A stretch of 64,000 nt of DNA, from the sequence record MT446413.1; one strand, written 5' to 3'. The notes beneath the pieces are model-generated. The model was not told where the DNA came from and did no database searches. It saw only the letters and a program-made list of their open reading frames with translations. Below are positions 727 through 45,267 of the stretch, piece after piece. Position 1 is the first letter of the stretch; every line of letters starts with the position of its first letter. Source of the DNA: Escherichia virus TH42. The translations under genes and the position numbers were made by a program.

Positions 727-917
727 TATCTGTCAACCGATTTAGGGACAAACTGCATTACACAGACCTGATTACGAGGGAGATTTATTTCACAAGCGGC
801 TCTTCTCGTCTCAATCTTAACGCTAGAATCTGGACCAACGTTAGATATAAATACTCCCATAGCAAATGCCCCAACTACAAAACCAATAGCTAAGTAAGTA
901 GCTTTTTCTTCTTTCAT
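726..917 (-). CDS. small membrane protein
   Basis: 63 aa; N-terminal hydrophobic helix ATYLAIGFVVGAFAMGVFI. Confidence 0.35.
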   Translation of the reverse strand: MKEEKATYLAIGFVVGAFAMGVFISNVGPDSSVKIETRRAACEINLPRNQVCVMQFVPKSVDR

Positions 918-934
918 CTTGGTTATACACCTTA

Positions 935-1183
935 TTAGTAATATACCTTTTCATTGATAACTAAAGTGTCGTAATTCTCTGTCTGAGAGTGGACCGCTTT
1001 ATGTATAGTGGCAACTACATCAACAGCATCTTTAAAACGTCGGTAGTGGTTTATAGTTACCTGTTTGAGACGTCTAGCCTCCTCTCTTGAGGGAAGCTGA
1101 GTTTTCAGAACAGTGATTTTACCTGTTGAAAGCTTGGTAATCACAACTTTCAGTGCCCAACAATCCAGAGCAGCCTTTTTCAT
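935..1183 (-). CDS. small hypothetical protein, KVYY-tail paralog family
   Basis: 82 aa; PSREEARRLKQ ... INEKVYY. Confidence 0.4.
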   Translation of the reverse strand: MKKAALDCWALKVVITKLSTGKITVLKTQLPSREEARRLKQVTINHYRRFKDAVDVVATIHKAVHSQTENYDTLVINEKVYY

Positions 1184-1192
1184 TTTTAATCC

Positions 1193-1726
1193 TTATACAC
1201 CTTTAGATGCAACTACACCACTACTACCGTTATAACGACCCTTCACTGCATAGGAATCATCACCAGCGTGAGAGTGTTCAAACATAACCATTTGACCAAC
1301 ACGCATCCCAGCACGAACTCGTAAGCTGTGGTTGTGAGTAACATTATGGAACTCAAAGGTCAGCTTACTGTTGTTAAACCCTGCATCAGCCCAACCAGCA
1401 TGGAGGTGGTTCAAGCCACAGCGAGCCATTGAGGAGCGGAGTACAAACAAACTTGAGATATTATCTGGAAGGTTAAACTCTTCCATTGAGTGAGCTAAGA
1501 AGAATTGTCCCGGAGTGATGACAATACCATCTTCAGGGATTTTCACTTCTTTCCACTTGAGATTTTCTTTAGCATCAATGTCAACAATGCCGTCAGCCTG
1601 TTCTTCAACAAGGATAGTATCACCAATACGGATATCCACGCTAGCAGCGTTAACATATTTATGCTCCGCATCTAAAAAGCCATTATCAATAACGTTGTGT
1701 AGTTCTTGAGAACCTAAAAGACTCAT
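1193..1726 (-). CDS. dcd: dCTP deaminase
   Basis: 177 aa; dCTP deaminase/dUTPase-fold motifs (SVDIRIGDT, FVLRSSMARCGLNH, GWADAGF). Confidence 0.8.
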   Translation of the reverse strand: MSLLGSQELHNVIDNGFLDAEHKYVNAASVDIRIGDTILVEEQADGIVDIDAKENLKWKEVKIPEDGIVITPGQFFLAHSMEEFNLPDNISSLFVLRSSMARCGLNHLHAGWADAGFNNSKLTFEFHNVTHNHSLRVRAGMRVGQMVMFEHSHAGDDSYAVKGRYNGSSGVVASKGV

Positions 1727-3159
1727 GAGTTTCTGTTTCCTTGTACAGATGATGCCAAATTGTTAATCATGTTACGAGCTGTTTCACGAGTCAGCGTAAC
1801 ACCTGCTAAGTTACTATCAAGTTCACCAACTAATTCACGAGCTGTTGCTCGGAGTTCTGCACCAAGTGCAGTGTTAGAATGAGCCAGACCATTACGACGA
1901 CCAACAGGTCGAGCGTCGTTAGCTAAAGATGCAAAGCCAGTACGAGCAGCTTCACGAGCCGCTATAGCTGCTACCCGATCTTCTGTAGGGGTTGGCAAAT
2001 CACCAACTTCTACACGTTCTATATCACTAGAACGTAGACCCTGAACAACAGAGCTAACTGTTTCCCATGAACGACGGGAACGCTGCAAATCACCCATAGA
2101 TGGAGAAGAAGCAGGTCGAACAGTTACTCCACCTGTATCATGAGTGACGTGCCATGTACGAGTACCCATTCCAGAAGAACGGGCACTACCAAAACTACCA
2201 GTGAAAGTATCACGAGGTGCCTCTGTAGCAGGTGCTGCGAATCTTGTCTGTTGCCAAGAGTCACGTCTGTCAGTTCCCGGAGTCCAAGGCTGCGTAATTG
2301 CTTCAACACCAATAGTGGTTAATTCACTAGACCAATCTGTCTGTAGGTTAACCTCTTCATCCAGATAGTTACGACCCGCTTCCTGAGGAATATTTAATAC
2401 AGTTTCCATCATCTTCAAGGTGTAGTGGCGACGTTGATTCTGATACAAGTTTACACCAGCCATAGGCCCAACTAAATCACTGATCAGATGAACTTCTGGT
2501 TCACCAAAAGCTCCCATTGCAAGGTGCATATACTCAGTAGAACTGCTGTAAACTGCAACTGTTGCTTCAGGCCACTTTTTGTGGACATACTTCATGTCAC
2601 GACTTGTCACCACAGGGATATCATTAGTATATGCCATTGCAAACATACCTTCGTTCGACACATACATATCATCGAGAGTCATAAACCCTTGACAAATCAT
2701 AGGGAAGCGACCTCTCAGAGTATCCATATCCAGAGGGAGGTTAATCATCATCTGAATCTTCACTTCGTCAATCTCCACTTCCAAAATCTCTTGGAAAGTG
2801 AAAAGTGCTTCAGCGTAATTTGTCCCACTAACAGGCTGAACTAGGCGAGATGTAGTTTGAAGCCCTTTACTCTCTGTCCAAGACAAGAAGTTGTCAAGGA
2901 ACAGTGCAGCATTACCCACGTTAGCAGGGCTGTTTTCCTGACGAGTGTTCCAACGAAATCCTCCTTGAACTAGGAAGATATCAACGTCATTCGGAGTTCG
3001 ATTTTGGAAGAACGTATCACGGATAGCACCACCCGCAATAACAGGATAGATACCATCAGGGACTACGTTATCTCTGATCAAATTACGAATCAGGTCAAGC
3101 CCTACACTGAGGGCTTCTCCTTCTTGAAGGTTTAATTCAGACAATGGAATCTTAATCAT
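1723..3159 (-). CDS. nucleotidyltransferase (CCA-adding / poly(A) polymerase head-domain family) with low-complexity C-terminal tail
   Basis: 478 aa; N-terminal VIAGGAIRDTFF...NDVDIF matches the Pol-beta NTase motif GGAVRD-x-LLG...DxD; last ~150 aa Arg/Ser/Ala-rich low complexity. Confidence 0.5.
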   Translation of the reverse strand: MIKIPLSELNLQEGEALSVGLDLIRNLIRDNVVPDGIYPVIAGGAIRDTFFQNRTPNDVDIFLVQGGFRWNTRQENSPANVGNAALFLDNFLSWTESKGLQTTSRLVQPVSGTNYAEALFTFQEILEVEIDEVKIQMMINLPLDMDTLRGRFPMICQGFMTLDDMYVSNEGMFAMAYTNDIPVVTSRDMKYVHKKWPEATVAVYSSSTEYMHLAMGAFGEPEVHLISDLVGPMAGVNLYQNQRRHYTLKMMETVLNIPQEAGRNYLDEEVNLQTDWSSELTTIGVEAITQPWTPGTDRRDSWQQTRFAAPATEAPRDTFTGSFGSARSSGMGTRTWHVTHDTGGVTVRPASSPSMGDLQRSRRSWETVSSVVQGLRSSDIERVEVGDLPTPTEDRVAAIAAREAARTGFASLANDARPVGRRNGLAHSNTALGAELRATARELVGELDSNLAGVTLTRETARNMINNLASSVQGNRNS

Positions 3160-3161
3160 TT

Positions 3162-3710
3162 CTACATTTTCCAGTTGAGAGATGGGGGATTCTTATAATC
3201 AAATCCTGCCATTTGGCAAAGACACATGTAAACCTTAACTGTTAAGTTAACGTCTTGCTCACAATATGTGAACATGTCTTCAGTGAATGCATCCCATGCT
3301 TCTTCCTGCTCACCATAATCACCCTTCAGTTCACCCAGAAATTCGCCCCATTGCTTGAGGCCATGACCACGAGGGCCATGTCTAGGGTCGCCTTTGGGAT
3401 ATTCTGGATTATCTCCAATACGGTCAGGCTTGAGATAACGACTCAGGCAAAGTGTATCAAAGACATTGAAGTGGAAAGGTATTACATGAGAGTAGAATTT
3501 AAAGAGAGCTGGTAGGTCAAAATCTATGATGTTGTGTCCTACAACTATATCAGCTTCCTTCAGTTTGTGAAGAGCTTCTTCAATTTGGTGAGGGCGATAC
3601 CCCCACCGTTCACCTGTAAGAACATCAAATATCCAGATACACCAGACATTTTGGATGCCCTCATAGAGATTATCACCCTCGATATCGAAGGCGAATATTT
3701 TCTTTACCAA
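3162..3710 (-). CDS. DnaQ-like (DEDDy) 3'-5' exonuclease
   Basis: 182 aa; Exo I FDIEGD, Exo II HNIIDFD, Exo III YCEQD motifs. Confidence 0.75.
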
Positions 3711-5494
3711 GGTCGTGCCTCCCCGTCTTGTGTGAGCAGAGAAGCTGCATCCTCACCATTGGTCAAGACAAACGGATTAGCTTCATCAACTTCGTGATCT
3801 TCTCGTTCTACAAGTCGACCTGTTTCATTGATATACTTGGTGTAGCAAACACCTGTCTGACCGTAGTTACGCTCCTTGAGAAGTCGTATGATTGACAAGT
3901 TCTTGCCTAACCCATCCGCTTGCTTATCTCGCTCAAAACCGATGATGCACTGACACCAACGCATCAGTGAACGTGAACCAGTGAACTGAACTTCTTTCAC
4001 CTGCCCACCTTCTTCGTGAGGAGCACCACCTGCCGGAGCATTCAAGTGAGATAATACAAAAGCAGTGAAGTCTAATTCCTTACACATACCAGCAAGCTCT
4101 GAAGCAATCTTACTGATTTCTGTATTCACCTCAGATGGAGTTAGGTGAGAAACTAATGCAGTGATGTTATCAAGAATGATAAACTTACACTGATTCTCAA
4201 CTACCCAGAAGCGAATACACTGCTTAATATCATCCCACTCATTCTGTCCGAAGTTGTCATACAAGAAGAACTTGTCAGCGTAACGGAGTGCTTCGTCACG
4301 TAGCTGAGATTCCTCATATTCAACATCAGGTCGGTGGAAAGGTACAGATGCTGATTTACCTGCAATGTTTTTAACAGACATGCCTACCTTCTCTTCCAAG
4401 AAGAAGCCACCACCATTAAAACCATGCTCAAGGCAAAGCCATGCTACCAGTTCGTGTGCGATTAAGGTTTTACCTGAACCAACACCACCACCGATTGCAA
4501 CCATCTCTCCCCAACGAATGCCGAAGGTCATTTCATTCAGAGTTTTCCACGGATAAGGAATACCCCATTCCGCTTTCTTCAGAGCGTCTTCTAAACAATC
4601 AAAGACAGTAACAGCACCAGCAGGTGATTCCCGCTTCGCTGAATATTTCAGATTGTTGAATAGCTCTTGACCTCGACCAGCGAGTAACATGTCATTTGCA
4701 TCTTTGATTTCCTTCTCTTGACCATTGTAAGTGAAGGTTCCTTTCGGAATACGAGCAAATTTAACATGGGGATATAATGCACGACCTTTAGTTAATGCAA
4801 TCTCACCTGCATCATCATTGTCCATGCAGAGCACAATCTCCTCAAAACCATTCAAGAAGTCACGGTTACGTGAGAGAACGGAAGAGATTGAACCTGCACC
4901 AAACGGTAGAGATACACACGCAGGTTTGATGTTTGTAGCGTTCGTGAACGCAGTGAGCACATGGAAGCCAGACATACAAGAGAGTGGGTCTTCAAAGATG
5001 AAGAGCTTCTTGTTGTACACGTCCCCGCGTTGTGCTTGAGCCATACCGAATAGGTCAGCTTCTTTAACACTGCCGATGTAATAGAATTTCTTGCTGTCTA
5101 GAAGCTTAACTTCATAACCAACAATGTTTCCATCACGTTCACGAGGGAAGAAGTAACTATCAGGAGTTTGCCCATCTGTCTGACTCAAACCAATACGGCA
5201 TTCATACCGTTCAGAGACAGCTTTAGGAATCAAACGACGAGTAAGCTCACCCTGAGGCAGCTCTAAGCAATCGTCTAAGATCTCTCGGAGTTCTTCAGGG
5301 GATAGTTCTTTCTTTTCATTCGGTGTAGGAGTTGTTCCCTTTTCGAAAACTTCATAACTACCACAACGATTACAACTGCCCCACTCTTCACCGGACTCTT
5401 CGTTTCGGAAGAGAATCATGTGATTGTGGGTCTTATCACGACCATGAGAGATACATTCTTTACAACCTGTATCCCCTAAAATGATCTTTGACAT
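3704..5494 (-). CDS. DNA primase/helicase (T7 gp4-like)
   Basis: 596 aa; N-terminal Cys4 zinc motif (CKEC...CNRC), TOPRIM-like middle, Walker [10 protein letters not shown] and DnaB-like helicase C-terminus. Confidence 0.85.
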
Positions 5495-5530
5495 GCTCTA
5501 TCCTCCTTGGAATTCCTTGAGCAGACTTCT

Positions 5531-5737
5531 TCAATAAAACGAACGTATTTCTTCCCACACATCATCTTGAAGACTTTTAAAACCCTGTAAAGCTGATTGG
5601 GTTCTCATGATAAAATCTTCAGAATGTTTATTGCGGTCAAGCATACTGACAAACTTGTCATAGCGGTTAATCTTCCACCGTAACTTTAAGTAGTCAGACT
5701 CGAGCTTTCTCAGCTTCTGTCGCTCAGTTACTGTCAT
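5531..5737 (-). CDS. hypothetical protein
   Basis: Start placed at internal ATG (MTVTERQKLRKLE...) preceded by AGGTGA SD; the longer track ORF (to 5836) would overlap the upstream gene by >100 nt. Confidence 0.3.
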   Translation of the reverse strand: MTVTERQKLRKLESDYLKLRWKINRYDKFVSMLDRNKHSEDFIMRTQSALQGFKSLQDDVWEEIRSFY

Positions 5738-6155
5738 CCTGATCACCTGCCAGATACGCTGTCCAGTCGCCAGATTCAACCAGAACATCTTGTTCTTCGT
5801 CGATATGATAAATCCATGCTTCCACAGTTTCACCACTATCCAGCACTACTGGAATTAGTGTACGATTGTAGAAAGTGTATGGATTGTCTTTACCACGATA
5901 ACCTTCCAGACCGTCATACGGACCTTCCAAACCAGCTTGAGTTGTTTCAAATACTTCCACACGAACAGGCTTGCCATTGCTGTCGTGCTCCAGAGACACA
6001 CTTGGGAAGTATGCTGTGCAATACTGATACAGGTTACAGTTGTTCACTGTCCAACCCTCACCAATAGACACACCACCGGCACGAGCATTGATAGCGTGGT
6101 TGTGTTGACCTTTTCTCAAGCTGCCGTAAGTTGCTACTAATACTTTATCAGACAT
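5724..6155 (-). CDS. gamma-glutamyl cyclotransferase-like (GGCT/AIG2 fold) protein
   Basis: 143 aa; N-terminal ATYGSL motif and size typical of GGCT family. Confidence 0.5.
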   Translation of the reverse strand: MSDKVLVATYGSLRKGQHNHAINARAGGVSIGEGWTVNNCNLYQYCTAYFPSVSLEHDSNGKPVRVEVFETTQAGLEGPYDGLEGYRGKDNPYTFYNRTLIPVVLDSGETVEAWIYHIDEEQDVLVESGDWTAYLAGDQDDSN

Positions 6156-6220
6156 TATATTACCTTTTGTGTTTCAGTTAAATTTGAACTAGCCCCCTCT
6201 TCCGAAGAGGCTAAAGCAAA

Positions 6221-6406
6221 TTATTCTACTTCGAAGTGTTTGATCACACCAGTCAACACGTCAGATTGGAATGTACCTACCAACTCTACTCCTCGGAAGA
6301 AGTTAACACTTGTTCCAAGTGATTCAAAGCGATCTGCTTGAATATCTAGAGATTGAATATTACCTTCTGAGTTTACTGTACGAAACATGATTGTGTATTT
6401 ATTCAC
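6221..6406 (-). CDS. hypothetical protein
   Basis: 61 aa ORF, co-oriented and tightly packed (stop overlaps next start). Confidence 0.35.
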   Translation of the reverse strand: MNKYTIMFRTVNSEGNIQSLDIQADRFESLGTSVNFFRGVELVGTFQSDVLTGVIKHFEVE

Positions 6407-6645
6407 AGAGTTGTTACTCCCTTATCTTCTTGTGCAATTGCGATGATACGCTCAACACATTCCATTGAATATTTATCACCTCGTTTAAGGAAGGTGACAA
6501 TTGCAGAGAACTGATTACCAATCATTCTCTTGTTTGTGATTCCAAACTCTTCACAGAGTTGGTTAATAGCTTTACGAGAACCAACAATCAGAGGTTCTTT
6601 TTGTTCGGTCATTCCACGACTGATCAAATCTTCGATAGACAACAT
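6403..6645 (-). CDS. hypothetical protein
   Basis: 80 aa ORF in operon context. Confidence 0.4.
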   Translation of the reverse strand: MLSIEDLISRGMTEQKEPLIVGSRKAINQLCEEFGITNKRMIGNQFSAIVTFLKRGDKYSMECVERIIAIAQEDKGVTTL

Positions 6646-6665
6646 TACAAATTCCTTTTGTTTAA

Positions 6666-7913
6666 TTACAGAGTTACTGCCACTTCACTACCTTCAACAG
6701 TTACAGACTCTAACTTACGAGGGTTGTGGACTTGTTGCGGATGAACCGGAACGTTCCAGCCACTGCGGTAGAAGTTACGACCATCGCAGAACAGAATGAC
6801 ATTGGCAGACATTGCATTAGGTTGCAGGTTGTTATGAACATGACGAATATCTGCAATCCAGTAACCACGAGACAACACATAACCAGTAGGTGCATTACGG
6901 ATTGTCTGAGTATTCATCTGACCTTCCAGTTGCATTTCTTCAGGAACTACATCCACTGAATCAACCGGCTGTGCGACTTGGCCTTCCAGTGCGAAGTTTT
7001 CATCATCAGCACTTTCACTGTCAGCAACCAATTCACCATCTCCATCTTCAATTGGAGCTTCAACAGGAGTCTGGTAAACCACTTTATACTGAGGAGTATA
7101 GAGAGGGTTTTGAGCTTTAACAAACTCAAGGATGTTGTGACGGTAGGTATCCAGAGTTGTACCAGTCAGGCCCGGTGCTGTATTAACTTCCAGTACCCAT
7201 GCTTCTCGACCTTTGGTAATGATATCAACTGCACCAAAATCCAGACCCATCGATTCAACGGCCTTCACTGCGTTGATCAGAGATGTATCGTTCGGAACAT
7301 CCGTAAAAGAGCTTGAGTAAACCCAACCAGTGTGATGGTTACGAACATCTTCACGATAGTTAGGGTCTTCACGATAACCATTACGACGAATTTTCTTCTG
7401 AACATAGGTGATTGCACCTTTGAACACATGGACACGCCATTCACGACGTGGGCCTTGAATACCTTTGGTGTACAGTTCAGCTTGACCAACTGAATCACGA
7501 GGCTCAACAACAATAATACCCGAACCAGAGTGACCAGTCAGTTCATGACGTTCATACACAATGTTGCCAGAGTTTGACCACTCCTGAGCAATCTCTTGAA
7601 CATCTGTATACTCAACAGTTTTAACACCTGCTTGGTCCATCACGCTGAAAGCACGACGTTTGTTCGCTGCCATGTGTAAGGCTGCGGTACGGTTAAGAAC
7701 AGTTGCAGAACCAAAGAAGGATTCAGGATAGCGGCGGTTTCCGTAGTTCACAACCACATCACCCTCACGAGAACGCCAGCGACTGTTCTCAGAAAGAAGA
7801 CCCATTACGTTAGCGTTGATACGTTCATCACGGATAGTATCACTAATGGCAGTTACCAGAGCGTTAACAGAATCAGAAGGGCCATACGGAAGAACACGGA
7901 TACGAGTAGTCAT
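6666..7913 (-). CDS. ATP-grasp family ligase
   Basis: 415 aa; ATP-grasp C-terminal signature DFGAVDIITKGREAWVLEVNTAPGL, upstream GSGIIVVE; acidic C-terminal extension. Confidence 0.65.
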   Translation of the reverse strand: MTTRIRVLPYGPSDSVNALVTAISDTIRDERINANVMGLLSENSRWRSREGDVVVNYGNRRYPESFFGSATVLNRTAALHMAANKRRAFSVMDQAGVKTVEYTDVQEIAQEWSNSGNIVYERHELTGHSGSGIIVVEPRDSVGQAELYTKGIQGPRREWRVHVFKGAITYVQKKIRRNGYREDPNYREDVRNHHTGWVYSSSFTDVPNDTSLINAVKAVESMGLDFGAVDIITKGREAWVLEVNTAPGLTGTTLDTYRHNILEFVKAQNPLYTPQYKVVYQTPVEAPIEDGDGELVADSESADDENFALEGQVAQPVDSVDVVPEEMQLEGQMNTQTIRNAPTGYVLSRGYWIADIRHVHNNLQPNAMSANVILFCDGRNFYRSGWNVPVHPQQVHNPRKLESVTVEGSEVAVTL

Positions 7914-7915
7914 TT

Positions 7916-8146
7916 TTAGATACCTTTTAGTTTAAGAATTTCGTTACGACAGGATTGAATTTTAACTTCGATTTCCCAATACTTGGCGAACATCTCGTCT
8001 TCTTGGTCATCGCTTGGTGAATCAATTAGGTTAAAAGCAAACGGATACAGCTTTCGCTGCTCCGTTACCAGTTGTTGAAGTCGGAGTTGTTGATACTCCA
8101 GCATTGTCAGGTGAGGCTTAGCTCCCTTGCTTGACATGAGGCTCAA
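7916..8146 (-). CDS. hypothetical protein
   Basis: 76 aa ORF in operon context. Confidence 0.35.
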   Translation of the reverse strand: MSLMSSKGAKPHLTMLEYQQLRLQQLVTEQRKLYPFAFNLIDSPSDDQEDEMFAKYWEIEVKIQSCRNEILKLKGI

Positions 8147-8351
8147 CTTTAATCCCCTTCAATTTCACATAGTCAGCCAACACGTTGTTGATAACGGTTG
8201 GGAAAGGGATTTCAACTGGAGAGTTAACCAGTCCCCCAATACCTTCTTGCATCCATTTCTGAATAGCTCGAAGGTTATCACATCCTGTGCTTGTCATTGG
8301 GATACGTCGAGTGGTTACAACGTTATCCAACATCAATTTACGAACTTCCAT
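8118..8351 (-). CDS. hypothetical protein
   Basis: 77 aa ORF in operon context. Confidence 0.35.
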   Translation of the reverse strand: MEVRKLMLDNVVTTRRIPMTSTGCDNLRAIQKWMQEGIGGLVNSPVEIPFPTVINNVLADYVKLKGIKVEPHVKQGS

Positions 8352-8362
8352 AACTTCACCTC

Positions 8363-10366
8363 TTAATGTTTACCTTTACAGTAATCTGAATTACAGATCA
8401 CCCTGTTTTCTTTGTTTAGTGAGCAAACTTCTGCATCACGCCACGGAATTTGTTTATAACAGACTGCACAAAACCCAATTGAAGTCCAGAGGGCTTTTGT
8501 GAACTCAGCTGTTCGTTGTCCGTCGTAACTGACAACTGTTTTTCGGAGAGTTGTTTGCTTTTCTGGAAATGTTTCCGCTTTCTCAGCGGGCACCTCCTTT
8601 GGGGCATTCTTTGGACCATAAACAGAGATGGCATAGGTATCGCCACCACGTTTTTCCAAGTAAGAGTTTGGAACATCAGACAATTCAATGTCACCAGAAC
8701 GTTTAGCTGAGCTGACCATTACAATCATCCGGCTAAGCATACGCTGATCAACACGAACTGCTACTTCAGGGCGACGTGGGTTGGTTGTGTCAACTGCTTT
8801 AGTCCAAATGTAACCTTCAGACAATGTAGTGTTAGTCACTTTGTCTTTGATCTCTTTGGCACAGACATAACAAATATCTTCACCACGAAGTTTACTCATT
8901 TCGTTATCAAACTCGAAATCAGTTTTAACATTGCCACATACAGCACAGACACCCAAAGGAATGTCTTCATCTTCTTCAGACGGTTTGGACAATGCTTCGA
9001 AACAGGCCGGATGCCAATATGCTTGGTAAGCGAACACAGCTTTCTTAGCATCTTTCCATTCAATGTGCTTGTCACAACCGCCACAATCACCATGAGAATG
9101 TGATTCCCAGAACTTACGGGTGACTTCCACACCATTCTTAGTGATGAAGGAGTCTTCTAAATCAAAAGGGATATCATCATCAAAATCAGCGGTGGTGCTT
9201 TGAGGCTCCTTATCGGTAGCATCAACAAACAGCCCTGAAGTGAGTACGAGGCGAATCATACTGTCCACTTCGGAGATACAAGCAACCGTCCCGCGATACA
9301 CCACCTTTGGGTTTTCGAGAGCCTTCAAGTATTCACTCTTGGCTACATTATGAACATCACCCTCAACATACTCTTGAGCAGCGTCATCATAAATATAACC
9401 AACCATCTTACCACGGTCAGTGTTGTTGTAAGCGTGGAACTCGTGAGGGATGATATCCACACGACCGTCACGACGATACGGAAGACCACGATCGGCAGCC
9501 AGTTTATTCTGATCTTCAATCGCTTTACGACGACGAATGTCTCCGCTTGTCACGCCGGGCTTGTCGTCTTTGTTTCCGTAAATGTCGCTTGTGCTGCTGC
9601 TTGATTTGTTTGTCTGTTGGTTCTGATACAGAGAGGAGTTCGAGTAATAGCCGCCCCAGCGACTCGTTACCGTAAAAACCGGAAGCTTGTGCTCCACCTC
9701 TTGAGTCAGAGTCATACGGTTGCCAGACAAATCAAAGATGTATTCAGTTCCCACTTTACACTCAAAGTGATCATTGATACGGTTCTTGTGTGACTTGGAA
9801 CGATTAAGAATCCACATCAACATATCTTCTTCAGAAGCACCAAACCAATCCAGACCACAACGGGCCAGATGGAAAGGACGTTCATCATTACGAATGATAT
9901 GCAGAGTATTGTCTTTGGCGTCATGCCAGATTAAAGTGAACGCACCATCCAACTTCTGGATAGTCTCTGCTGCACCAATGGTGTTGATTGAATGACAGAT
10001 GTTTTCGCTATCAACTTCGAAATTCTTATGATCTGGTAATAGTTCCTGATCTAACAGTGTACCATTATGAACCAGAGTAATGTCACCATGAGAGAAAGGG
10101 TGAGCATTTCGAGCATTGACAGCACCACGTGTGGCATGTCGGCTATGACCAACAATCCACGATGGAGGAACTACATAGTTCGTAAGCCCCTTAGTAAGAT
10201 TCGTGTACCCTGTCTGGAGCATAAAGGCATAGGAAGGAAGTGCTTCTTTATAAGAAAATACTTTTTCATCACCTTTACGCTGACCGAACACACCAGTTGA
10301 GTGCTGACCACGGAAGACTCCAGCATACAGAAGCTGGTTGAATACGTCTAAGTCTGTGGAGGTCAT
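8363..10366 (-). CDS. class II (Ntn) glutamine amidotransferase domain protein with C-terminal multi-Cys zinc-ribbon region; true start probably AUU at 10396
   Basis: N-terminal ~250 aa align to PurF/GlmS-type GATase (RGQHSTGV, VGHSRHATRGAVNARNAHPF, ITLVHNGTL); C-terminal half has several CxxC pairs; nucleophile Cys lies upstream of first ATG. Confidence 0.7.
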   Translation of the reverse strand: MTSTDLDVFNQLLYAGVFRGQHSTGVFGQRKGDEKVFSYKEALPSYAFMLQTGYTNLTKGLTNYVVPPSWIVGHSRHATRGAVNARNAHPFSHGDITLVHNGTLLDQELLPDHKNFEVDSENICHSINTIGAAETIQKLDGAFTLIWHDAKDNTLHIIRNDERPFHLARCGLDWFGASEEDMLMWILNRSKSHKNRINDHFECKVGTEYIFDLSGNRMTLTQEVEHKLPVFTVTSRWGGYYSNSSLYQNQQTNKSSSSTSDIYGNKDDKPGVTSGDIRRRKAIEDQNKLAADRGLPYRRDGRVDIIPHEFHAYNNTDRGKMVGYIYDDAAQEYVEGDVHNVAKSEYLKALENPKVVYRGTVACISEVDSMIRLVLTSGLFVDATDKEPQSTTADFDDDIPFDLEDSFITKNGVEVTRKFWESHSHGDCGGCDKHIEWKDAKKAVFAYQAYWHPACFEALSKPSEEDEDIPLGVCAVCGNVKTDFEFDNEMSKLRGEDICYVCAKEIKDKVTNTTLSEGYIWTKAVDTTNPRRPEVAVRVDQRMLSRMIVMVSSAKRSGDIELSDVPNSYLEKRGGDTYAISVYGPKNAPKEVPAEKAETFPEKQTTLRKTVVSYDGQRTAEFTKALWTSIGFCAVCYKQIPWRDAEVCSLNKENRVICNSDYCKGKH

Positions 10367-10473
10367 GTTGCCCCCAGCTAATACGATACCACAAATTTTC
10401 TAATCCACCTGAAGGGTAAACCCTTTCATCTAATTAACCTTTAAATGCGCCCTTTATCAGAGCGCCCATTGTG

Positions 10474-11574
10474 TTACAGCAGTCGTTCTAATTGCATTTC
10501 CAGATGGTCTGGAATGTAACCAGTGACGTTATCATCACTGCTACCTGATTCACGCATCAGAGCAAACATGTGACGAATTTCACGAACCGTTGCGATTCGA
10601 GTGTTTTCAATCTGAGGGGTGTAATAGGTCAGGATCTCTTCGTAAACAGAGTTGGCATTACCACGTACATATCCCAAGAAACCGTAGAAGTCGCCCATAT
10701 CACGCAAGTTGATAAGGATTTCACCATCAGGTCCAGTCTGCTGTACACGAACACGACCAACCAGAGTAACAGAATGTTCACGACAGAACAGAATATCACG
10801 AGCCAAACGATAACCGCCAGTCAGGTCATCATCATTAGGTGTGTAGTCCAGAGGCAGATACTGAATCATAGGAGCGAAGCGTAGCTCATTCAGTTTCTCA
10901 ACATATGCTTCATTATCCAAATCTGCATACTCAACAGCCAGTTTCTTGAGAACCAAGAAGCGGTTGACCAGATTAAGGAGTTGGCTTTTCTTCCACTTTG
11001 GCTCTGAGATACGAAATTCAACAGAACCAAACTGAGCCAGAGGTAATAGGTTAAGGGAGGTGTACTTGTCCCAGCTATTAACAAGAGTATTGAAGAAGGC
11101 TTCACCATCTCGGTTGAACGCTGCGGAAGCATTCATTACCTGTGCTTGAACAACAGCAAAGGCAGGACAGAAGTTGCTACGATAGCGATGGTATCCAGAA
11201 CATTTGAACATCATCTTTTCATAGAACGTCCATCCAAGAATTACTTTCTTCAGGATGTTACTATCAGCGTCACGCATATCCATATGAACGTGAGTAGAGC
11301 AGCGCCAAGTCCCTTCAGCTTCAGAGTCTTGTACTGCTTCACTCAGATTGTTAATAGCACTAAGCAATTCTACACCGTTGTAAGGCCGTGCACAAACCAT
11401 CTCACAGCCATCACGAAGTGAACCATCTTCAGTACAAACCCAAAGGTCTGCATCAATTTCAGAGGTTCCTTCAACTTCCAGCTCGATGCCAATACCACAC
11501 TGAAAAGCGATGCTTGGGTGCGGCTCAGCCAGACGAGCATTACGGTATCCAAAAACTTGTGCTACGGTTGTCAT
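10474..11574 (-). CDS. amidoligase (Amidoligase_2-type, glutamine-synthetase-like fold)
   Basis: 366 aa; GIGIELEVEG, EDGSLRDGCEMV, CSTHVHMD motifs. Confidence 0.7.
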   Translation of the reverse strand: MTTVAQVFGYRNARLAEPHPSIAFQCGIGIELEVEGTSEIDADLWVCTEDGSLRDGCEMVCARPYNGVELLSAINNLSEAVQDSEAEGTWRCSTHVHMDMRDADSNILKKVILGWTFYEKMMFKCSGYHRYRSNFCPAFAVVQAQVMNASAAFNRDGEAFFNTLVNSWDKYTSLNLLPLAQFGSVEFRISEPKWKKSQLLNLVNRFLVLKKLAVEYADLDNEAYVEKLNELRFAPMIQYLPLDYTPNDDDLTGGYRLARDILFCREHSVTLVGRVRVQQTGPDGEILINLRDMGDFYGFLGYVRGNANSVYEEILTYYTPQIENTRIATVREIRHMFALMRESGSSDDNVTGYIPDHLEMQLERLL

Positions 11575-12197
11575 AACGTTTCCACCAACTCTACATTATA
11601 TGATGACAGATCTGAAGAAATATGCTTGAACTTCTCCAGAAGATTTAAAGATTGACGACCATTGTCGCCGTAACCAGCAGAAAGATCAACTTGACCTACA
11701 AGTGCCCCTTTGTAATAAACTTTACCATCGACAGGGTTGATGTAGATGAAGCGAGTAACCAGACCTTCGAAGTCAGGATTAAACAGATTATACACCAGCT
11801 CTCCCGGAATCGAACGACCCATTGAAGGAGGTGCACCACGTAATTTGTTCCCCATCAGACCCTTAGCTCGCTGACGAACAGGGTTGATATGAGTCCAGCT
11901 TACCATGTTGTTGCCGTGTTGTAAGTATCCCACATCTGGAGATTCCAGAATAAGGCTTTGATCAAACACAGGAATGCCCTGAACAACCTGTCGTTCAAAC
12001 TGCCCTTCGGCGTTCTTAGACCAGCGTTCAACTTCAAAAGTTAAGGCCATTTCTGCTTCGTGAGAGAAGTCATCTTCTCCAAAGCGGTTTGCTTGGTTCA
12101 CGTTGAGTACATAAAGAGGTAAATTAATCCCTCGTTCTGCACGTTGGGCAATCCATGTTCCGCAATAATAATGCTGAAAATCTCTTAACAGGCTCAC
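11571..12197 (-). CDS. hypothetical protein (amidoligase cluster member)
   Basis: 208 aa; start overlaps upstream stop; no motif recognised. Confidence 0.4.
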   Translation of the reverse strand: MSLLRDFQHYYCGTWIAQRAERGINLPLYVLNVNQANRFGEDDFSHEAEMALTFEVERWSKNAEGQFERQVVQGIPVFDQSLILESPDVGYLQHGNNMVSWTHINPVRQRAKGLMGNKLRGAPPSMGRSIPGELVYNLFNPDFEGLVTRFIYINPVDGKVYYKGALVGQVDLSAGYGDNGRQSLNLLEKFKHISSDLSSYNVELVETL

Positions 12198-12206
12198 GAT
12201 AACACC

Positions 12207-13013
12207 TTAGATAATCTGGAGTTTAGAGGAGAATTTATCCGCTTCTTTAACATCGTTGCTATTGATGATGTTGTGAAGCTTTTCGATAGGCAGACGGGAG
12301 TGCAGAGACATGAGAATTTCCATATCACAGCCCTGAATAACCTTATCAACTTGATCGTAAACAAACTTACGAGTGGACTGTTCACCAATCCAGAAGTTCG
12401 ACAGAGAACGATATTCAATACCGTAATCTTTATAACGAATAGCAGATGCCTTGCCGTAAAGTTCTTTACGACGAGTGTCCTTATCCATAATTACTGCTGG
12501 AAGTGACAGGAAGTAATCACACAGAACACCCAGCATCATCTGAGTCTGTCGAGTTACTTCCAAAGACCCTGCAACACCGAGGTGTACGTGACCGCCAGCA
12601 GTACGCAGACCTTTGTCTGTCGCTACCGGAGATGGGTTTTTCTGACCAGTGAAGGCGTTGAAATCAGGAGTACAGCCAAACACAAAGGCTGATGGATGGA
12701 ATGATTGCAGCTCTTCAGAAGTGTACACATGAGAACTAATCCCAAGTGCAGCTTCCATACCACGTTCATTAAGAACTTTGTTGGTCAGATCAATACCACG
12801 CTGGATGTTATCATCAAACGCTTCGAACCCTTTCTGTGGGTTAATATCGAATTCAGCCAGAACGTTGTCTTCTTGAAGACGAACATCAGGGGCCAGATCG
12901 ATTTTGTTATCTTTAGAACAGCCCAGCTTACCAGCCACAGAGGTGATAACACCAGAAGCAGTACGAACAAACATTTCAGGGTCAGAACCAATAAGGAAAG
13001 CACGCTTAGTCAT
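12207..13013 (-). CDS. putative COOH-NH2 ligase-type amidoligase
   Basis: Start at internal ATG with GGAG SD (track ORF begins at GTG 13058); MTKRAFLIGSDPEMFV and GGHVHLG resemble GCS2/COOH-NH2 ligase family; tentative. Confidence 0.45.
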   Translation of the reverse strand: MTKRAFLIGSDPEMFVRTASGVITSVAGKLGCSKDNKIDLAPDVRLQEDNVLAEFDINPQKGFEAFDDNIQRGIDLTNKVLNERGMEAALGISSHVYTSEELQSFHPSAFVFGCTPDFNAFTGQKNPSPVATDKGLRTAGGHVHLGVAGSLEVTRQTQMMLGVLCDYFLSLPAVIMDKDTRRKELYGKASAIRYKDYGIEYRSLSNFWIGEQSTRKFVYDQVDKVIQGCDMEILMSLHSRLPIEKLHNIINSNDVKEADKFSSKLQII

Positions 13014-13956
13014 TGTAATACTCCACAAGTTCATCAAAAAGGGAAACAACACGGGCACCAGCTTCTTCTGGTGTCATTGAGGAAGGTACTGCTTGCATCA
13101 AGCGTTCAATAAAACTGCGAACAGTAATTCTGTCCATACGCTGATCTAATACTTCACGTTTATGGCCTGCACACATTGACCAGAGACGCAACCACTCACT
13201 CATACTTTCGTAATAGTCAGGGTCTTGGTCACGACGACGAGCCATACGGCGGAGAACTCCGTCATTATGGTTTCGTACATAACCATCTCTGTTATCGTCA
13301 ATACCAAATACATTCTGAACCCATACGTTTTCAGAAAATTCATCAGTTGAACAGACCAGTGGCAAGAATGCGATTGCACTCATATCGCCAGTAAAATAGG
13401 TCGCTGCTGATTCATCATCAGTGTCTACATCATTTGAATAAGACCAACGACCAAAGAAGTTACGACTCAAACCGGCTAAACGTAAAGCTAAGCTGATTCG
13501 TTGTCGCTTGAGTAACTCTTCCTTGTCTTGAACGCCTTCCTGAAGGAACTCCATTCCCATAAAATCTCCATCCAGATAACTCCGGAGGGTCATTAATCCA
13601 GTAAACACCTTGTCTGCTGGGTGGTCTCGAAGGTTCACGGCAACTGAGTTCACCGAAGTGACAGAGAACATGTTTTTATAGCAAGACATTGAGTTAAAAA
13701 TGTCTGTTGCTTCAACTAAAGCTCTTTCGATATCTTTAGCTGGTACGCCATAAAAATTGTGAGGCCAGAAGTTAATAACTCCAATTTCTGAAGTTCTATC
13801 ACGAAGGCTTGAGAGATTGATACTGTCGCCATTAATGTCTGTAACAGAATACATATGCTGACAGTTGAAAGTACCAAAACAAGCTCGCCCTCTGAACACT
13901 GACTCACCAAAGTCCCCTGATGGTGTTACCGGAGCAGTCGATGCGGAGATTGACAT
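13006..13956 (-). CDS. hypothetical protein (amidoligase cluster member)
   Basis: 316 aa ORF, co-oriented, overlaps neighbours by a few nt. Confidence 0.45.
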   Translation of the reverse strand: MSISASTAPVTPSGDFGESVFRGRACFGTFNCQHMYSVTDINGDSINLSSLRDRTSEIGVINFWPHNFYGVPAKDIERALVEATDIFNSMSCYKNMFSVTSVNSVAVNLRDHPADKVFTGLMTLRSYLDGDFMGMEFLQEGVQDKEELLKRQRISLALRLAGLSRNFFGRWSYSNDVDTDDESAATYFTGDMSAIAFLPLVCSTDEFSENVWVQNVFGIDDNRDGYVRNHNDGVLRRMARRRDQDPDYYESMSEWLRLWSMCAGHKREVLDQRMDRITVRSFIERLMQAVPSSMTPEEAGARVVSLFDELVEYYND

Positions 13957-13964
13957 ATTCGCCT

Positions 13965-15182
13965 CTATTTATTGAAGAATAATTTTTCCAAAATGTTTTC
14001 CCACTCTTCTGAGGGACGTACTGTATAATTACTACCTGTCAGTCCATTGGACATACTACTGATAATGTTATACATGTTGTAGCTTCGAGCTGAAGCTGTT
14101 TCATTGTTCCAGTTATAACCGAACACAATTTTAGCAAAAGATGTTTCAGATTCAGCCACCTCTCGGATAAATTCAACCAAGAGTGACTTTTCTGTGATGA
14201 TTGGTCGGGTATCTTCCGACAGATGGCAATATTGAGGCAAAAGGATTGGCAAGAACATCGAATTGTTCACTCGACAATCACGAACACCTTCACTGCGATA
14301 GATCAGACTGGAGAAGTCTTCATCACGCAGGTGGCCTTCACCTTCAGTGTATTCACACTGTCGCCATTTGGTCTGGCGAGGCTCAACCATTGTACTACCA
14401 ACACCCACTGTATACAGAGATGCTTGGAAGATACAGGAATCGTAATCATTCCCTGTTAAAGCAACACGTTCGTTACCGAACACATCCACTGAAGAGTTGA
14501 TCAGTCGGCTGAATGCAAGAGAGGCTAAAGGAGACCAGCCCTTCTTATACATCTTGTTCAACATTTCATACACAGCAGATTTTTCATCATCTGTATAGAA
14601 TGTGCGATTCAACATCAGATAGAACAGAGCACGATCAGCGGGACAGCCATCAGTACAAACACCCATGAACCCTACTTCATGCCATACCAGACATGAGTCA
14701 AGGTCTTTATCCATGAATGCTGCAAAGGTTTCCATAACAACACGATCAGTGATATCAGGACGGTTGTTTTCTTCTGCCCATGTTTCCACATGAGAAGGAG
14801 GACGAGGGTCTTCATTTTCTAACCCTTCACGGAAATACTGAGTAGCGATATATTCAGTATCACCATAACATCTTACACCGTGAGCTGGAAGATGTGTTCC
14901 GGAGTTCCAGATATACTTGATTTCAGACATAGGCAACATATTCTCAAGAACGTTCTCTTCAGCAGTGCCTTGACGAACCATCATATTTCCACTCCACACC
15001 TTGATGCGGATATTCCAGCCGAAATTACTATCGTATGTATTATAGTAATCAGGATCACCATCTTCATCTTCGTCATAATCACCACCCTGATAGTAACCTG
15101 CTTTCAGGAAACCATAACAAGGGGGCCAGACGGTTACAACGTCTTCTGATTCTTTCCAGCTTTGAAGTGTTACAGGGAACAT
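13965..15182 (-). CDS. hypothetical protein (amidoligase cluster member), acidic N-terminal tract
   Basis: 405 aa ORF; DYDEDEDGDPDYY tract; no motif recognised. Confidence 0.45.
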   Translation of the reverse strand: MFPVTLQSWKESEDVVTVWPPCYGFLKAGYYQGGDYDEDEDGDPDYYNTYDSNFGWNIRIKVWSGNMMVRQGTAEENVLENMLPMSEIKYIWNSGTHLPAHGVRCYGDTEYIATQYFREGLENEDPRPPSHVETWAEENNRPDITDRVVMETFAAFMDKDLDSCLVWHEVGFMGVCTDGCPADRALFYLMLNRTFYTDDEKSAVYEMLNKMYKKGWSPLASLAFSRLINSSVDVFGNERVALTGNDYDSCIFQASLYTVGVGSTMVEPRQTKWRQCEYTEGEGHLRDEDFSSLIYRSEGVRDCRVNNSMFLPILLPQYCHLSEDTRPIITEKSLLVEFIREVAESETSFAKIVFGYNWNNETASARSYNMYNIISSMSNGLTGSNYTVRPSEEWENILEKLFFNK

Positions 15183-19052: not shown

Positions 19053-19072
19053 AAACCCTCCTATTTGATTTG

Positions 19073-19224
19073 GTGGACTATCTGGAATCGAACCAGAAGC
19101 TCACTAAGAAAGCAATTCCCACTGTTATAAAAGCACTTGCCTCAACAGGGATACACTAACTCTGGTGCCGTACCCATACTAGCCCTTGTTTAAAATTGGT
19201 CGGGACGGAAGGATTCGAACCCTC
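19073..19224 (-). other. two tRNA 3'-half-like motifs (T-arm plus acceptor 3' strand) with no detectable 5' acceptor partner
   Basis: Minus strand TCTGG-TTCGATT-CCAGA (~19081-19097) and GAGGG-TTCGAAT-CCTTC-CGTCCCG-A-CCA (~19197-19224, CCA encoded). Confidence 0.3.
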
Positions 19225-19248
19225 TTACGTTGATTTAAAAGCTCTTAG

Positions 19249-19327
<79 letters not shown>

Positions 19328-32325: not shown

Positions 32326-33867
32326 ATGTCATTAGATAAAGAAATATATGAAGCACTAACTGGAGACAAACTATCGGTAGAGGAGAAGAAGGCTCTGCTT
32401 GAAATGCTGAAGGATAGAGATCAATGGAGAAAGTATAATAGGATTCTTTCTTTTAAAGCATACCAGTTTCAGAAAGACTTTTATGCAGCGGGACTGAAGC
32501 ATCGCTTTAGATTCCTGTGTGCAGCTAACCGTGTTGGTAAATCTTACAGCGAGGCATACGAGTTTGCTTGTCATGTCACAGGTCGCTACCCAACTTGGTG
32601 GACAGGATATAGATTTAATCGACCCATATTGGCTTGGGCAGTAGGGATTACAGGGGACTCTACAAGAAAGGTATTGCAAAAGGAATTGTTTGGAACACCT
32701 ATCGGAAAGGATACAAACTTATTAGGGACGGGTGTTATTCCTCGTGATGCTATCGTCATTGACACGATAGAACGAGATGGAAACAAATTACAGATCGTAC
32801 AAATCAAGCACCAAAATGCTAGAGGCGAATTTGATGGGCTGAGTACGTTAGAGTTTCGTTCTACCCAACAAGGTGAACACACATTAATGGGTGCTACAGT
32901 GGATTACATTTGGCTGGATGAAGAAGATCCTTATGAAAGTATGGCAATCTTCTCTCAGTGCGTAACACGTACACTTACTACTAAAGGTTTAGTTACGATT
33001 ACAGCTACACCAGAGAACGGATTAACAGAGCTGGTGGACAAGTTTATGAAAGGTGAAGGGGACGAGAACACAGGTTCTCTATATTTCCAAAATGCTTCTT
33101 GGTGGGATGCTCATGTGGACCTAGGTGGTCACATCTCTGACCAAGATATAAAGGATATGACAGAAGGTATTCCGGCATGGCAGCTAGAGATGCGCTCTAA
33201 AGGTATGCCTCTGTTGGGTTCAGGTTTGATTTATGATGTATCTGATGATTCAATTAAGTGTGACCCGTTTGAAATTCCTGATACGTGGAAACGTGTTTGT
33301 GCCATTGATATTGGTATTGATCACCCGACGGCAGCTGTATGGTCAGCTTATGATGCTAACACCGATACAATCTACATTTATGACTGCTATAAAGAAAGTG
33401 GCTTTACTCCAGTGTATCATGCACCAGCTATTAATGGTCGTGGTCAGTGGATTCCAGTCATTCTTCCTCACGATGCTGATAACATTGAGAAGGGAAGTGG
33501 TGCTTCTGTAGCACAATTCTATAAAAATGCAGGAGTAAACGTACAAAATGATACCTTCCATAACAAGATCGGAATGGATGGTAAGAAGAACTTCTTTGTG
33601 GAGCCAGGAATTACTGATATTCGTGAGCGTATGATGTCAGGTCGATTCAAAGTCTTTAATACTACCGCATGTGCTAAGCTCTTTGAAGAGAAAGCACGTT
33701 ACCATCGAAAAGTTGGTAAGATTATTAAAGAACATGATGACCTTATGGACGCAATGCGATATTCAGCTTGTTCTGTTACACACAGAGGTCGGTCTAAGCA
33801 TGACGCTAGCTATGGTAGCTCGTCGCTTTATCAAGAAAATATTAACAGATGGAATCAAAGCTACTAA
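32326..33867 (+). CDS. terminase large subunit
   Basis: 513 aa; Walker A-like CAANRVGKS, ATPase plus C-terminal nuclease-type acidic residues; precedes portal. Confidence 0.75.
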   Translation: MSLDKEIYEALTGDKLSVEEKKALLEMLKDRDQWRKYNRILSFKAYQFQKDFYAAGLKHRFRFLCAANRVGKSYSEAYEFACHVTGRYPTWWTGYRFNRPILAWAVGITGDSTRKVLQKELFGTPIGKDTNLLGTGVIPRDAIVIDTIERDGNKLQIVQIKHQNARGEFDGLSTLEFRSTQQGEHTLMGATVDYIWLDEEDPYESMAIFSQCVTRTLTTKGLVTITATPENGLTELVDKFMKGEGDENTGSLYFQNASWWDAHVDLGGHISDQDIKDMTEGIPAWQLEMRSKGMPLLGSGLIYDVSDDSIKCDPFEIPDTWKRVCAIDIGIDHPTAAVWSAYDANTDTIYIYDCYKESGFTPVYHAPAINGRGQWIPVILPHDADNIEKGSGASVAQFYKNAGVNVQNDTFHNKIGMDGKKNFFVEPGITDIRERMMSGRFKVFNTTACAKLFEEKARYHRKVGKIIKEHDDLMDAMRYSACSVTHRGRSKHDASYGSSSLYQENINRWNQSY

Positions 33868-33875
33868 ATATAGTG

Positions 33876-33895
33876 GGGAGGCTAGTCCTCCCTTT
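33876..33895 (+). terminator. weak terminator-like hairpin after terminase gene
   Basis: GGGAGG-CUAGU-CCUCCC then UUU only. Confidence 0.3.
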
Positions 33896-33934
33896 AGTAG
33901 TTTACTCCAAGCTATCAACCGAGGGAGAGATTAG

Positions 33935-36178: not shown

Positions 36179-36187
36179 GGACACTAA

Positions 36188-36424
36188 ATGAATACTAGAC
36201 AACAATTCAATAAAGAGCATGCCGCCGCTTTGGCGGCTCTCAATCATAACGGCATTCTTGACGCAGCATTAGAGGCATTAAAAGAAACCCTCATGAAAGA
36301 CATAGTTTTAACTGATGTGCATGAGTCAAAGAAACGCGAAGAGTGTTATCAAAAGTATAAAATGGTTGGTAGCTTAAAAGAGGTCATAAAAGCTGCTATC
36401 AATAGTGCAGGAGATAATTCCTAA
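36188..36424 (+). CDS. hypothetical protein
   Basis: 78 aa ORF between portal and scaffold. Confidence 0.4.
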   Translation: MNTRQQFNKEHAAALAALNHNGILDAALEALKETLMKDIVLTDVHESKKREECYQKYKMVGSLKEVIKAAINSAGDNS

Positions 36425-37503: not shown

Positions 37504-37543
37504 TCGACAAATTATTTTTAAATAGTATAGGAGCTAACATAAC

Positions 37544-39405: not shown

Positions 39406-39467
39406 GAACTGACCTAGGTTCTACAGTGTTCAAAACTTACACCATTAAATCTGGTGCTTAAAACTAA

Positions 39468-39492
39468 GGCTGCCTTCGGGTGGCCTTTTCTC
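39468..39492 (+). terminator. intrinsic terminator after capsid/Ig-like ORF
   Basis: GGCUGCC-UUCG-GGUGGCC then UUUUCUCAUUUU. Confidence 0.55.
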
Positions 39493-39519
39493 ATTTTAAG
39501 ACCCTTATAAGGAGATATG

Positions 39520-39528
39520 TAATGTATT
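39520..39528 (+). promoter_or_regulatory. candidate phage-sigma-dependent promoter motif (TAATGTATT)
   Basis: TAATGTATA-like motif ~35 nt upstream of 39562 gene, just after capsid terminator. Confidence 0.35.
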
Positions 39529-39561
39529 CTCTTTGTCTATACATAACTAGGAGGACACACT

Positions 39562-40308: not shown

Positions 40309-40317
40309 GGAGAACAT

Positions 40318-42951: not shown

Positions 42952-42996
42952 AACTAAGAATGCCCTCTCTTCAGAGGGCTTTATGGAGGATTATAA

Positions 42997-45174: not shown

Positions 45175-45180
45175 AGGACT

Positions 45181-45198
45181 GCCCCTTCGGGGGCTTTT
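45181..45198 (+). terminator. intrinsic terminator after tail fibre gene
   Basis: GCCCC-UUCG-GGGGC then UUUU. Confidence 0.55.
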
Positions 45199-45267
45199 AG
45201 AAGTTAAATTAGTGAATAGGTAATGAAACTAATATATCTAAAAGGATAAACACATAGGAGAAAGAAG

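Follow-up and report, generated by a model that had tools for sequence, protein, structure and literature searches.

Escherichia virus TH42 carries among its replication genes a protein whose N-terminal ~140 residues form a Pol-beta-fold head that is descended from, or closest to, the head of class II CCA-adding enzymes and poly(A) polymerases, and which is probably an active nucleotidyltransferase (hereafter NTase). We analyzed it in a stretch of 64,000 nucleotides (nt) from sequence record MT446413.1, referred to here as the window. The gene is a 478-amino acid (aa) open reading frame (ORF) at 1723..3159 on the minus strand (ORF list; stop codon included), exactly as originally predicted, and its ATG start is backed by an N-terminus, MIxIP, that is conserved in all relatives. 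The original prediction had read the product as a class II CCA-adding/poly(A)-polymerase-type enzyme. The superfamily, the choice of class II as nearest family by profile and predicted fold, and the catalytic carboxylates all stand, but membership of the family does not: judged by its motifs and domains, the NTase is not a canonical CCA-adding enzyme, nor a class II member in a working sense.

The catalytic signature of the head is that of class II motif A, GGxVRD followed by DxD, here in the form GGAIRD...NDVDIF. The head-motif sequence singled out by the original prediction (VIAGGAIRDTFFQNRTPNDVDIF) lies at residues 40-62, and its conservation and profile matches make it more than a chance resemblance. 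An exhaustive phmmer search with residues 1-300 returned a tiny family, 28 clusters among 1.84 billion representatives, of which 25 entered the family alignment (22-30% overall identity). Residues G43, G44, R47, D48, D58, D60, F62, Y115, I125, Q136, P153, Y191, and K195 are invariant in 25/25 of these relatives. The head also shows the features of the Pol-beta superfamily, with the pattern hG[GS]-x9-13-Dh[DE]h, a third carboxylate on a neighboring strand, and an alpha-beta-alpha-beta-alpha-beta core.

Profile and structure comparisons converge on class II enzymes. Searched against the sequences of the PDB, the family profile matched CCA-adding enzymes (E 0.0015), with motif A aligned to GGAVRD...D.D; phmmer with the single source protein found nothing there, so that these enzymes were reached only by the family profile. 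Pfam PolyA_pol (PF01743) matches 17/25 family members below threshold (E 2.5e-4 to 1), and the scores listed for two of them, 13.5 and 22.3 bits, lie under the 23-bit cut-off. Against a class II profile of nine sequences (E. coli Cca, PcnB, and seven phage CCA enzymes), hhalign aligned family positions 41-136 to Cca 5-85 with 88.7% probability (E 2.6e-6), while its alignments to the single Cca and PcnB sequences were too weak for use. The profile alignment pairs the invariant Y115 with a tyrosine in the Cca segment that corresponds to the class II flexible loop. In an AlphaFold2 model, residues 1-~290 are confident (predicted local distance difference test, pLDDT, about 90), and the best 20 Foldseek matches of this model in the PDB are all class II enzymes, at only 10-16% identity in the structural alignments; the predicted head fold is thus closest to that of class II. 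NCBIfam and PADLOC scans of the source protein returned nothing. The homology of the head is real rather than fortuitous.

The conservation pattern also suggests that the head is catalytically competent. E124 is a candidate third catalytic carboxylate: its column holds D in 16/25 and E in 9/25 family members and is never non-acidic, and the adjoining I125 is invariant, so a catalytic role for E124 appears plausible from the alignment and the model. Within the genus, the ratio of nonsynonymous to synonymous substitution rates (dN/dS) is ~0.08 across the folded residues 1-295. Because the GG, RD, and DxD residues are invariant, the third position is always acidic, and purifying selection is strong, the NTase is probably an active, two-metal, template-independent nucleotidyltransferase.

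We propose that it is best explained as a catalytically competent, lineage-specific nucleotidyltransferase that would transfer a nucleoside monophosphate (NMP) from a nucleoside triphosphate (NTP) to a hydroxyl by two-metal catalysis. The acceptor would most probably be the 3'-OH of a polynucleotide, with RNA favored, and would be extended without a template. To our knowledge, all characterized enzymes with this motif-A signature add NMPs to RNA 3'-OH ends in untemplated fashion, and for this reason template-independent NMP addition to a polynucleotide 3'-OH, RNA favored, is our best guess for the chemistry, held tentatively and with somewhat less than even confidence. The novel alpha/beta domain that follows the head may help to bind the NTP or the acceptor through its R-D-x-x-Y-x-x-K-K-x-P motif, and the genus-specific tail could dock the enzyme on a partner or substrate.

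Several observations weigh against this proposal. Homology to class II enzymes is confined to ~95 residues, and the local hhalign alignment ends ahead of motif B. The family shows neither an RRD nor a conserved column equivalent to it for motif B (RRD[F/L]TxNA, ribose recognition), and nothing conserved that matches motif D (EDxxR, the amino-acid template for CTP/ATP); the 9 reference class II sequences all carry motif B and motif D ([E/D]DP[L/I]R..R..RF). Motifs C and E are likewise absent from the family. The source protein has no Pfam match of any kind even at E<=1, so that with its relatives falling below threshold the assignment to PolyA_pol offered as a check by the original prediction did not come out. 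The helical neck, body, and tail that bind the tRNA or RNA substrate in class II enzymes were not found either, and where the original prediction had proposed to check for a tRNA-binding body there is instead a domain without structural relative and a probably disordered tail. For this second domain (residues 144-~296) no structural relative was detected. Because motifs B-E are absent and domain 2 is an orphan, the sequence identifies neither the nucleotide nor the acceptor. With a net charge of -18 over residues 1-300 and a core isoelectric point of 4.6, the folded part is acidic and lends no positive support to polynucleotide binding; net charge is, however, uninformative on RNA binding, since E. 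coli Cca is likewise acidic over its first 230 residues. Cca and PAP I are already supplied by E. coli, the host. Finally, in the one phage of a sister family that was compared, Cronobacter phage vB_CsaP_009 (Grimontviridae, Privateervirus), the same split PolA polymerase serves replication without an NTase: the exonuclease gene is followed directly by that for dCTP deaminase.

The second domain has conserved features of its own. The most conserved motif outside the head spans residues 187-197 (R187-D188-x-x-Y191-x-x-K194-K195-x-P197). Across the 25 aligned members Y191 and K195 are invariant, D188 is always D or E, R187 is retained in 20/25, and position 194 is K or R in 22/25; a further motif, (W/Y)(S/T)xG(L/R), is conserved near residue 275. 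The 187-197 motif may help to bind the NTP, a substrate phosphate, or the acceptor. We considered R187-D188-x-x-Y191 as a remodeled motif D but do not claim it, since a forced global hhalign alignment is unreliable: it sets the family's S-R-D-M-K-Y opposite EDPLR at 9.6% probability, off register and without matching residues. The motif could at most be an analogue of motif D.

Beyond the folded part, residues 301-478 are compositionally biased (55% A+R+S+T+G, aromatic-poor, net +3, GC content at third codon positions ~0.2) and have pLDDT <50 in the AlphaFold2 model, with four tentative helices; the tail is probably disordered. An Arg/Ser/Ala-rich tail had been predicted and is real, but it comprises about 178 residues rather than ~150 and is biased in composition without being strictly low-complexity. 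Its two parts evolve differently, with dN/dS of 0.3-0.6 in the linker (residues 296-360) and ~0.2 in the distal tail (361-478), where column conservation within the genus is 92-100% and the last 18 residues are near-invariant. Kuravirus tails are of similar length and cannot be aligned to the Suseptimavirus-type tail, and in metagenomic members of 275-290 aa a long tail is missing, which puts the predicted minimal functional unit at ~275 residues. Elsewhere in the window we found no paralogous tail, shared docking peptide, or internal repeat. The tail is most plausibly a genus-specific add-on, a docking or targeting region for a partner or substrate. The gene is also a mosaic: compared with Bas87, its synonymous divergence amounts to 0.44 in the head and 0.02-0.07 in the tail, with the reverse trend for Bas88, which indicates that head and tail modules have recombined within the genus.

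The NTase is a core gene of Gordonclarkvirinae-type phages. The source phage is a Suseptimavirus-type, phiEco32-like E. coli podophage (Gordonclarkvirinae); DNA 1193-5494 is 99.6% identical to phage TH34 and 88-95% to ECBP2, Bas88, SU7, and IME267, the last two classed as Gordonclarkvirinae, genus Suseptimavirus. At the protein level the NTase is 99.8% identical to the TH34 version and 83-94% to those of other Suseptimavirus-type phages. It belongs, by a match over residues 1-471 (E 2.7e-155) and by its conserved position, to PHROG 12715 'nucleotidyltransferase', and its orthologues include SU10 gp74, phiEco32 gp73 (annotated 'hypothetical'), LAMP gp73, and Bas88_0064. Kuravirus orthologues are the same gene at the same position and are conserved over residues 1-~280 (28-42% identity to the source-phage protein, against 84-99% within Suseptimavirus), whereas among phiEco32-like orthologues protein length varies from 426 to 490 aa and tails are unalignable between genera. 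With the source protein and two distant members as queries, tblastn found 97 phage records each, all of Escherichia or Shigella phages, exactly as many as match the replication locus as a whole. The identical order of primase/helicase, exonuclease, NTase, and dCTP deaminase recurs in three divergent metagenomic lineages (25-31% identity), and in every locus examined (Suseptimavirus, Kuravirus, and these three lineages) the NTase is flanked by the PolA exonuclease subunit on one side and dCTP deaminase on the other. Its status as a core gene follows from this fixed synteny and from the equality of the two counts.

Outside this lineage the family all but disappears. Single-protein and full-length-alignment searches with a word index recovered almost exclusively close relatives, and exhaustive and core-only profile searches added only members of the same phage lineage and one marginal protein (P0062) matching motif A alone. 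Considered with the gene order in phage 009, where the split polymerase evidently works without it, this distribution marks the NTase gene as a lineage-specific insertion in a replication module of T7-like type. The phage 009 arrangement weighs against an obligatory role in the replisome and also against a functional partnership between the NTase and dCTP deaminase. Privateer, of the same genus as phage 009, is reported to carry an RtcB RNA ligase and four tRNA genes, with an RtcB homologue in phage 009 itself (PMC7881722). The NTase gene is already annotated in relatives and is an orphan enzyme rather than a new kind of system. SU10 gp74 has been detected by mass spectrometry through one peptide (PMC4281155); a literature search found no functional study of the protein and no assay of any family member.

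Within the window, the NTase, which the original prediction had called the only large enzyme between dCTP deaminase and the exonuclease, is the sole gene between them, in a minus-strand string ordered primase/helicase, exonuclease, NTase, dCTP deaminase. The exonuclease is 32% identical to the N-terminus of T7 gp5. Only 2 nt separate its stop codon from the NTase ATG (TAG-AA-ATG), and the NTase stop overlaps the deaminase ATG by 4 nt (ATGA). Promoter-like sites are not in excess across 900-6200, and no terminator-like site is listed at the junctions of the string. Given these tight junctions and the lack of such signals, the four genes look co-transcribed and are apparently translationally coupled.

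Upstream of the replication genes, 5724-15182 on the minus strand holds a conserved cluster of ligase- and amidotransferase-type genes (Table 1) plus unknown ORFs. Parts of this cluster recur in the distant metagenomic relatives, namely the amidotransferase and the gamma-glutamyl cyclotransferase, with the amidoligase in one locus. In relatives, the replication locus is interrupted in several places by HNH/NUMOD4 homing-endonuclease genes, which in one metagenomic phage separate the primase and helicase parts.

Table 1. Features of the NTase gene, its product, and its surroundings (window positions, except for the insertions in relatives, which are given in the coordinates of each locus)
Feature	Residues	Position	Strand	Remarks
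NTase, complete coding sequence		1723..3159	-	Stop codon 1723-1725; orthologue of SU10 gp74, phiEco32 gp73, Bas88_0064
Pol-beta-fold NTase head, nearest class II (PolyA_pol) head	1-143	2731..3159	-	
Motif A, I-A-G-G-A-I-R-D ... P-N-D-V-D-I-F	41-63	2971..3039	-	Putative metal-binding aspartates D58, D60
Candidate third catalytic carboxylate	E124	2788..2790	-	Start of strand 122-130 (strand from model)
Family-specific alpha/beta domain	144-295	2275..2730	-	F/M-P153, R187...P197, and (W/Y)(S/T)xG(L/R) motifs
Motif R-D-M-K-Y-V-H-K-K-W-P	187-197	2569..2601	-	Predicted helix 186-195
Variable linker	296-360	2080..2274	-	pLDDT 33-57; lowest conservation, most indels among close relatives
Ala/Arg/Ser/Thr-rich genus-specific tail	361-478	1726..2079	-	Four low-confidence helices
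dCTP deaminase, downstream neighbor		1193..1726	-	Pfam DCD, E 9.7e-35
Exonuclease subunit of split PolA, upstream neighbor		3162..3710	-	T7-gp5-like 3'-5', separately encoded; Pfam DNA_pol_A_exo1; PHROG 'DNA polymerase exonuclease subunit'
Primase/helicase, head of co-directional string		3704..5494	-	PHROG 239, E 6.9e-174; Pfam DnaB_C, Toprim
Gamma-glutamyl cyclotransferase (GGACT)		5724-6155	-	
ATP-grasp/RimK-like ligase		6666-7913	-	
GlmS-like glutamine amidotransferase		8363-10366	-	
Amidoligase		10474-11574	-	
COOH-NH2 ligase		12207-13058	-	
tRNA-like element		19249-19327	-	Rfam, 36.4 bits; anticodon UCU, no encoded CCA
Two further T-arm/acceptor-like pieces, downstream		about 19198-19248; 19069-19187	-	Ending in CCA
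HNH/NUMOD4 insertions in relatives' loci		L005 3184-6510; L004 1184-1675, 5834-6343; L003 947-1468		

Other substrates than a polynucleotide 3' end have to be weighed against untemplated RNA extension, and one is suggested by the biology of these phages. According to the BASEL-collection paper, Gordonclarkvirinae are remarkably resistant to restriction-modification (RM) without known modification genes, and its authors point to the locus of dCTP deaminase and the 'nucleotidyltransferase' as a possible basis of covalent DNA modification (PMC11990801). The NTase might then belong to an undiscovered DNA-modification or anti-restriction pathway, possibly with dCTP deaminase, nucleotidylylating DNA or a precursor or making an unusual deoxynucleoside triphosphate derivative. 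Its gene is indeed embedded in a string of replication and nucleotide-metabolism genes and overlaps the start of the deaminase gene. Site counts in the window (EcoRI, 12; EcoRV, 30; EcoKI, 6; EcoP1, 111) are roughly at expected frequencies, so the reported resistance is not explained by avoidance or loss of the sites of these enzymes; CCWGG (Dcm/EcoRII) is nearly absent (1 vs. ~76 expected) and GATC occurs at about half of expectation. Normal site counts keep the idea of DNA modification alive without implicating the NTase gene. On the other side, we know of no DNA-modification pathway that uses a class II-like NTase, and dCTP deaminase with a ThyX-type thymidylate synthase and a deoxynucleoside monophosphate kinase makes up an ordinary route of dTTP supply. 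The direct adjacency of exonuclease and deaminase genes in phage 009 makes the position of the NTase look like an insertion site and not half of a functional pair, and no mention of modified bases in these phages turned up in a literature search. We therefore regard a role of this kind as unlikely. That the NTase is the missing component of an undescribed mechanism accounting for resistance to EcoRI, EcoRV, type I, and type III systems, its class II-like head and new substrate domain nucleotidylylating DNA, a DNA precursor, or a restriction component, seems slightly less probable again, but interest in the protein would rise sharply if it proved to underlie this resistance.

An equally unlikely alternative is that the NTase nucleotidylylates a protein or small molecule as a counter-defense, by AMPylating or UMPylating a host defense or metabolic protein or by making or consuming a signaling nucleotide. 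The acidity of the folded part, seen in nearly all members, would suit such a target, and a rapidly evolving genus-specific tail is what a host-interaction module would be expected to have. However, no PADLOC model of a defense-system NTase matched at E<=1, and neither a PADLOC match nor the closest fold places the protein among the defense and counter-defense NTases (CD-NTase, AbiEii/MenT, MNT). The GGxVRD signature is, moreover, characteristic of class II polynucleotide enzymes.

The polynucleotide enzyme that comes first to mind is a bona fide tRNA CCA-adding or repair enzyme, serving phage tRNA-like transcripts or host tRNAs damaged by defense nucleases. By profile and by fold the NTase comes closest to CCA-adding enzymes, many phages encode such enzymes, and the window holds a tRNA-like element whose 3' end lacks an encoded CCA (19249-19327). 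Still, canonical CCA addition is improbable because the templating motif and the tRNA-binding domains are absent, motif B, motif D, and the helical neck, body, and tail all being missing. Genuine CCA enzymes of phages share 33-56% identity with E. coli Cca, whereas the NTase lacks even a sub-threshold Pfam match at E<=1, and the host supplies Cca. Each of the 97 matching phage records contains the NTase, yet these phiEco32-like phages carry at most one tRNA (PMC7881722). ARAGORN found no tRNA in the window, and the tRNA-like element there is degenerate, with a vestigial, almost absent D-arm and a long variable region of ~22 nt. It forms part of a cluster of degenerate tRNA-like elements at 19069-19327 on the minus strand. 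At the same place Bas88 has a normal tRNA-Arg(UCU), which already encodes its CCA. As a pointer to a CCA role, the element without CCA is suggestive but weak.

About as improbable as CCA addition is a role mainly as an accessory or scaffold of the split PolA replisome, exerted through the tail, with catalysis secondary or lost. The invariant place directly after the exonuclease subunit in every lineage examined, the apparent translational coupling, and a tail that is under purifying selection and has a near-invariant C-terminus within the genus all fit such a role. It is opposed by catalytic residues that are invariant over deep divergence, arguing for retained enzymology; by the shortest members (275-290 aa), which are essentially tail-less; and by sister-family phage 009, which has the same split polymerase without an NTase.

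A substitute for a missing replicative DNA polymerase, as the original prediction hinted in remarking that the window contains no polymerase catalytic subunit, is the least credible reading. The remark is literally true, in that tblastn found no PolA polymerase domain in the window, but it is an artefact of the window's extent. Mapped onto Bas88, the window runs from 45230 through the record end round to 32714 and omits 32715-45229, a 12.5-kb segment that in Bas88 holds the 614-aa PolA polymerase subunit Bas88_0041 (Bas88 37327-39171). Relatives' polymerase subunits measure 611-615 aa, are also found at the metagenomic loci, and in the metagenomic relatives lie ~8 kb downstream. The exonuclease/polymerase split is described as common to the whole phage group (PMC9965538). 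In this split T7-like PolA, the exonuclease lies beside the primase/helicase and the polymerase subunit ~7 kb further downstream, outside the window. The NTase lacks the architecture of Family X DNA polymerases, in which a palm is joined to fingers, thumb, and 8-kDa domains for templated synthesis. The notion of a stand-in polymerase is thus very improbable.

Untemplated extension of a polynucleotide, RNA favored, remains the reading that we prefer, and comparison with known systems places the NTase apart from each of them. It shares motif A (GGxVRD...DxD) with class II enzymes such as the Bacillus stearothermophilus CCA-adding enzyme (1miv), E. coli PAP I (3aql), and human TRNT1 (1ou5), but it lacks motifs B-E, the helical neck, body, and tail, and an HD domain, and has instead an orphan second domain and a long tail. 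With genuine phage CCA enzymes, for example those of Klebsiella phage K54_rec5, Sinorhizobium phage phiM7 (gp269), and Aeromonas phage 65 (ST65p392), it has phage origin and motif A in common. These enzymes, found in 416 phage records at the 33-56% identity to E. coli Cca given above, occur mostly in large phages (85-385 kb among those listed), and their reference sequences carry motifs B and D; the NTase family is far more remote from E. coli Cca and is linked to it only by profile methods. Stand-alone CCA-head proteins (PDB 2la3) and minimal NTases (MenT toxins, MNT antitoxins) show lower structural similarity to it than full class II enzymes do, and differ from it in second domain and genomic context. 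In the replication module of these common, therapeutically used E. coli phages very few enzymes lack an explanation, and the NTase is one of them. If active, it would be a minimal class II-type NTase in which an unrelated domain has taken the place of the templating neck and RNA-binding body, and thus a natural experiment on the re-targeting of the class II catalytic head.

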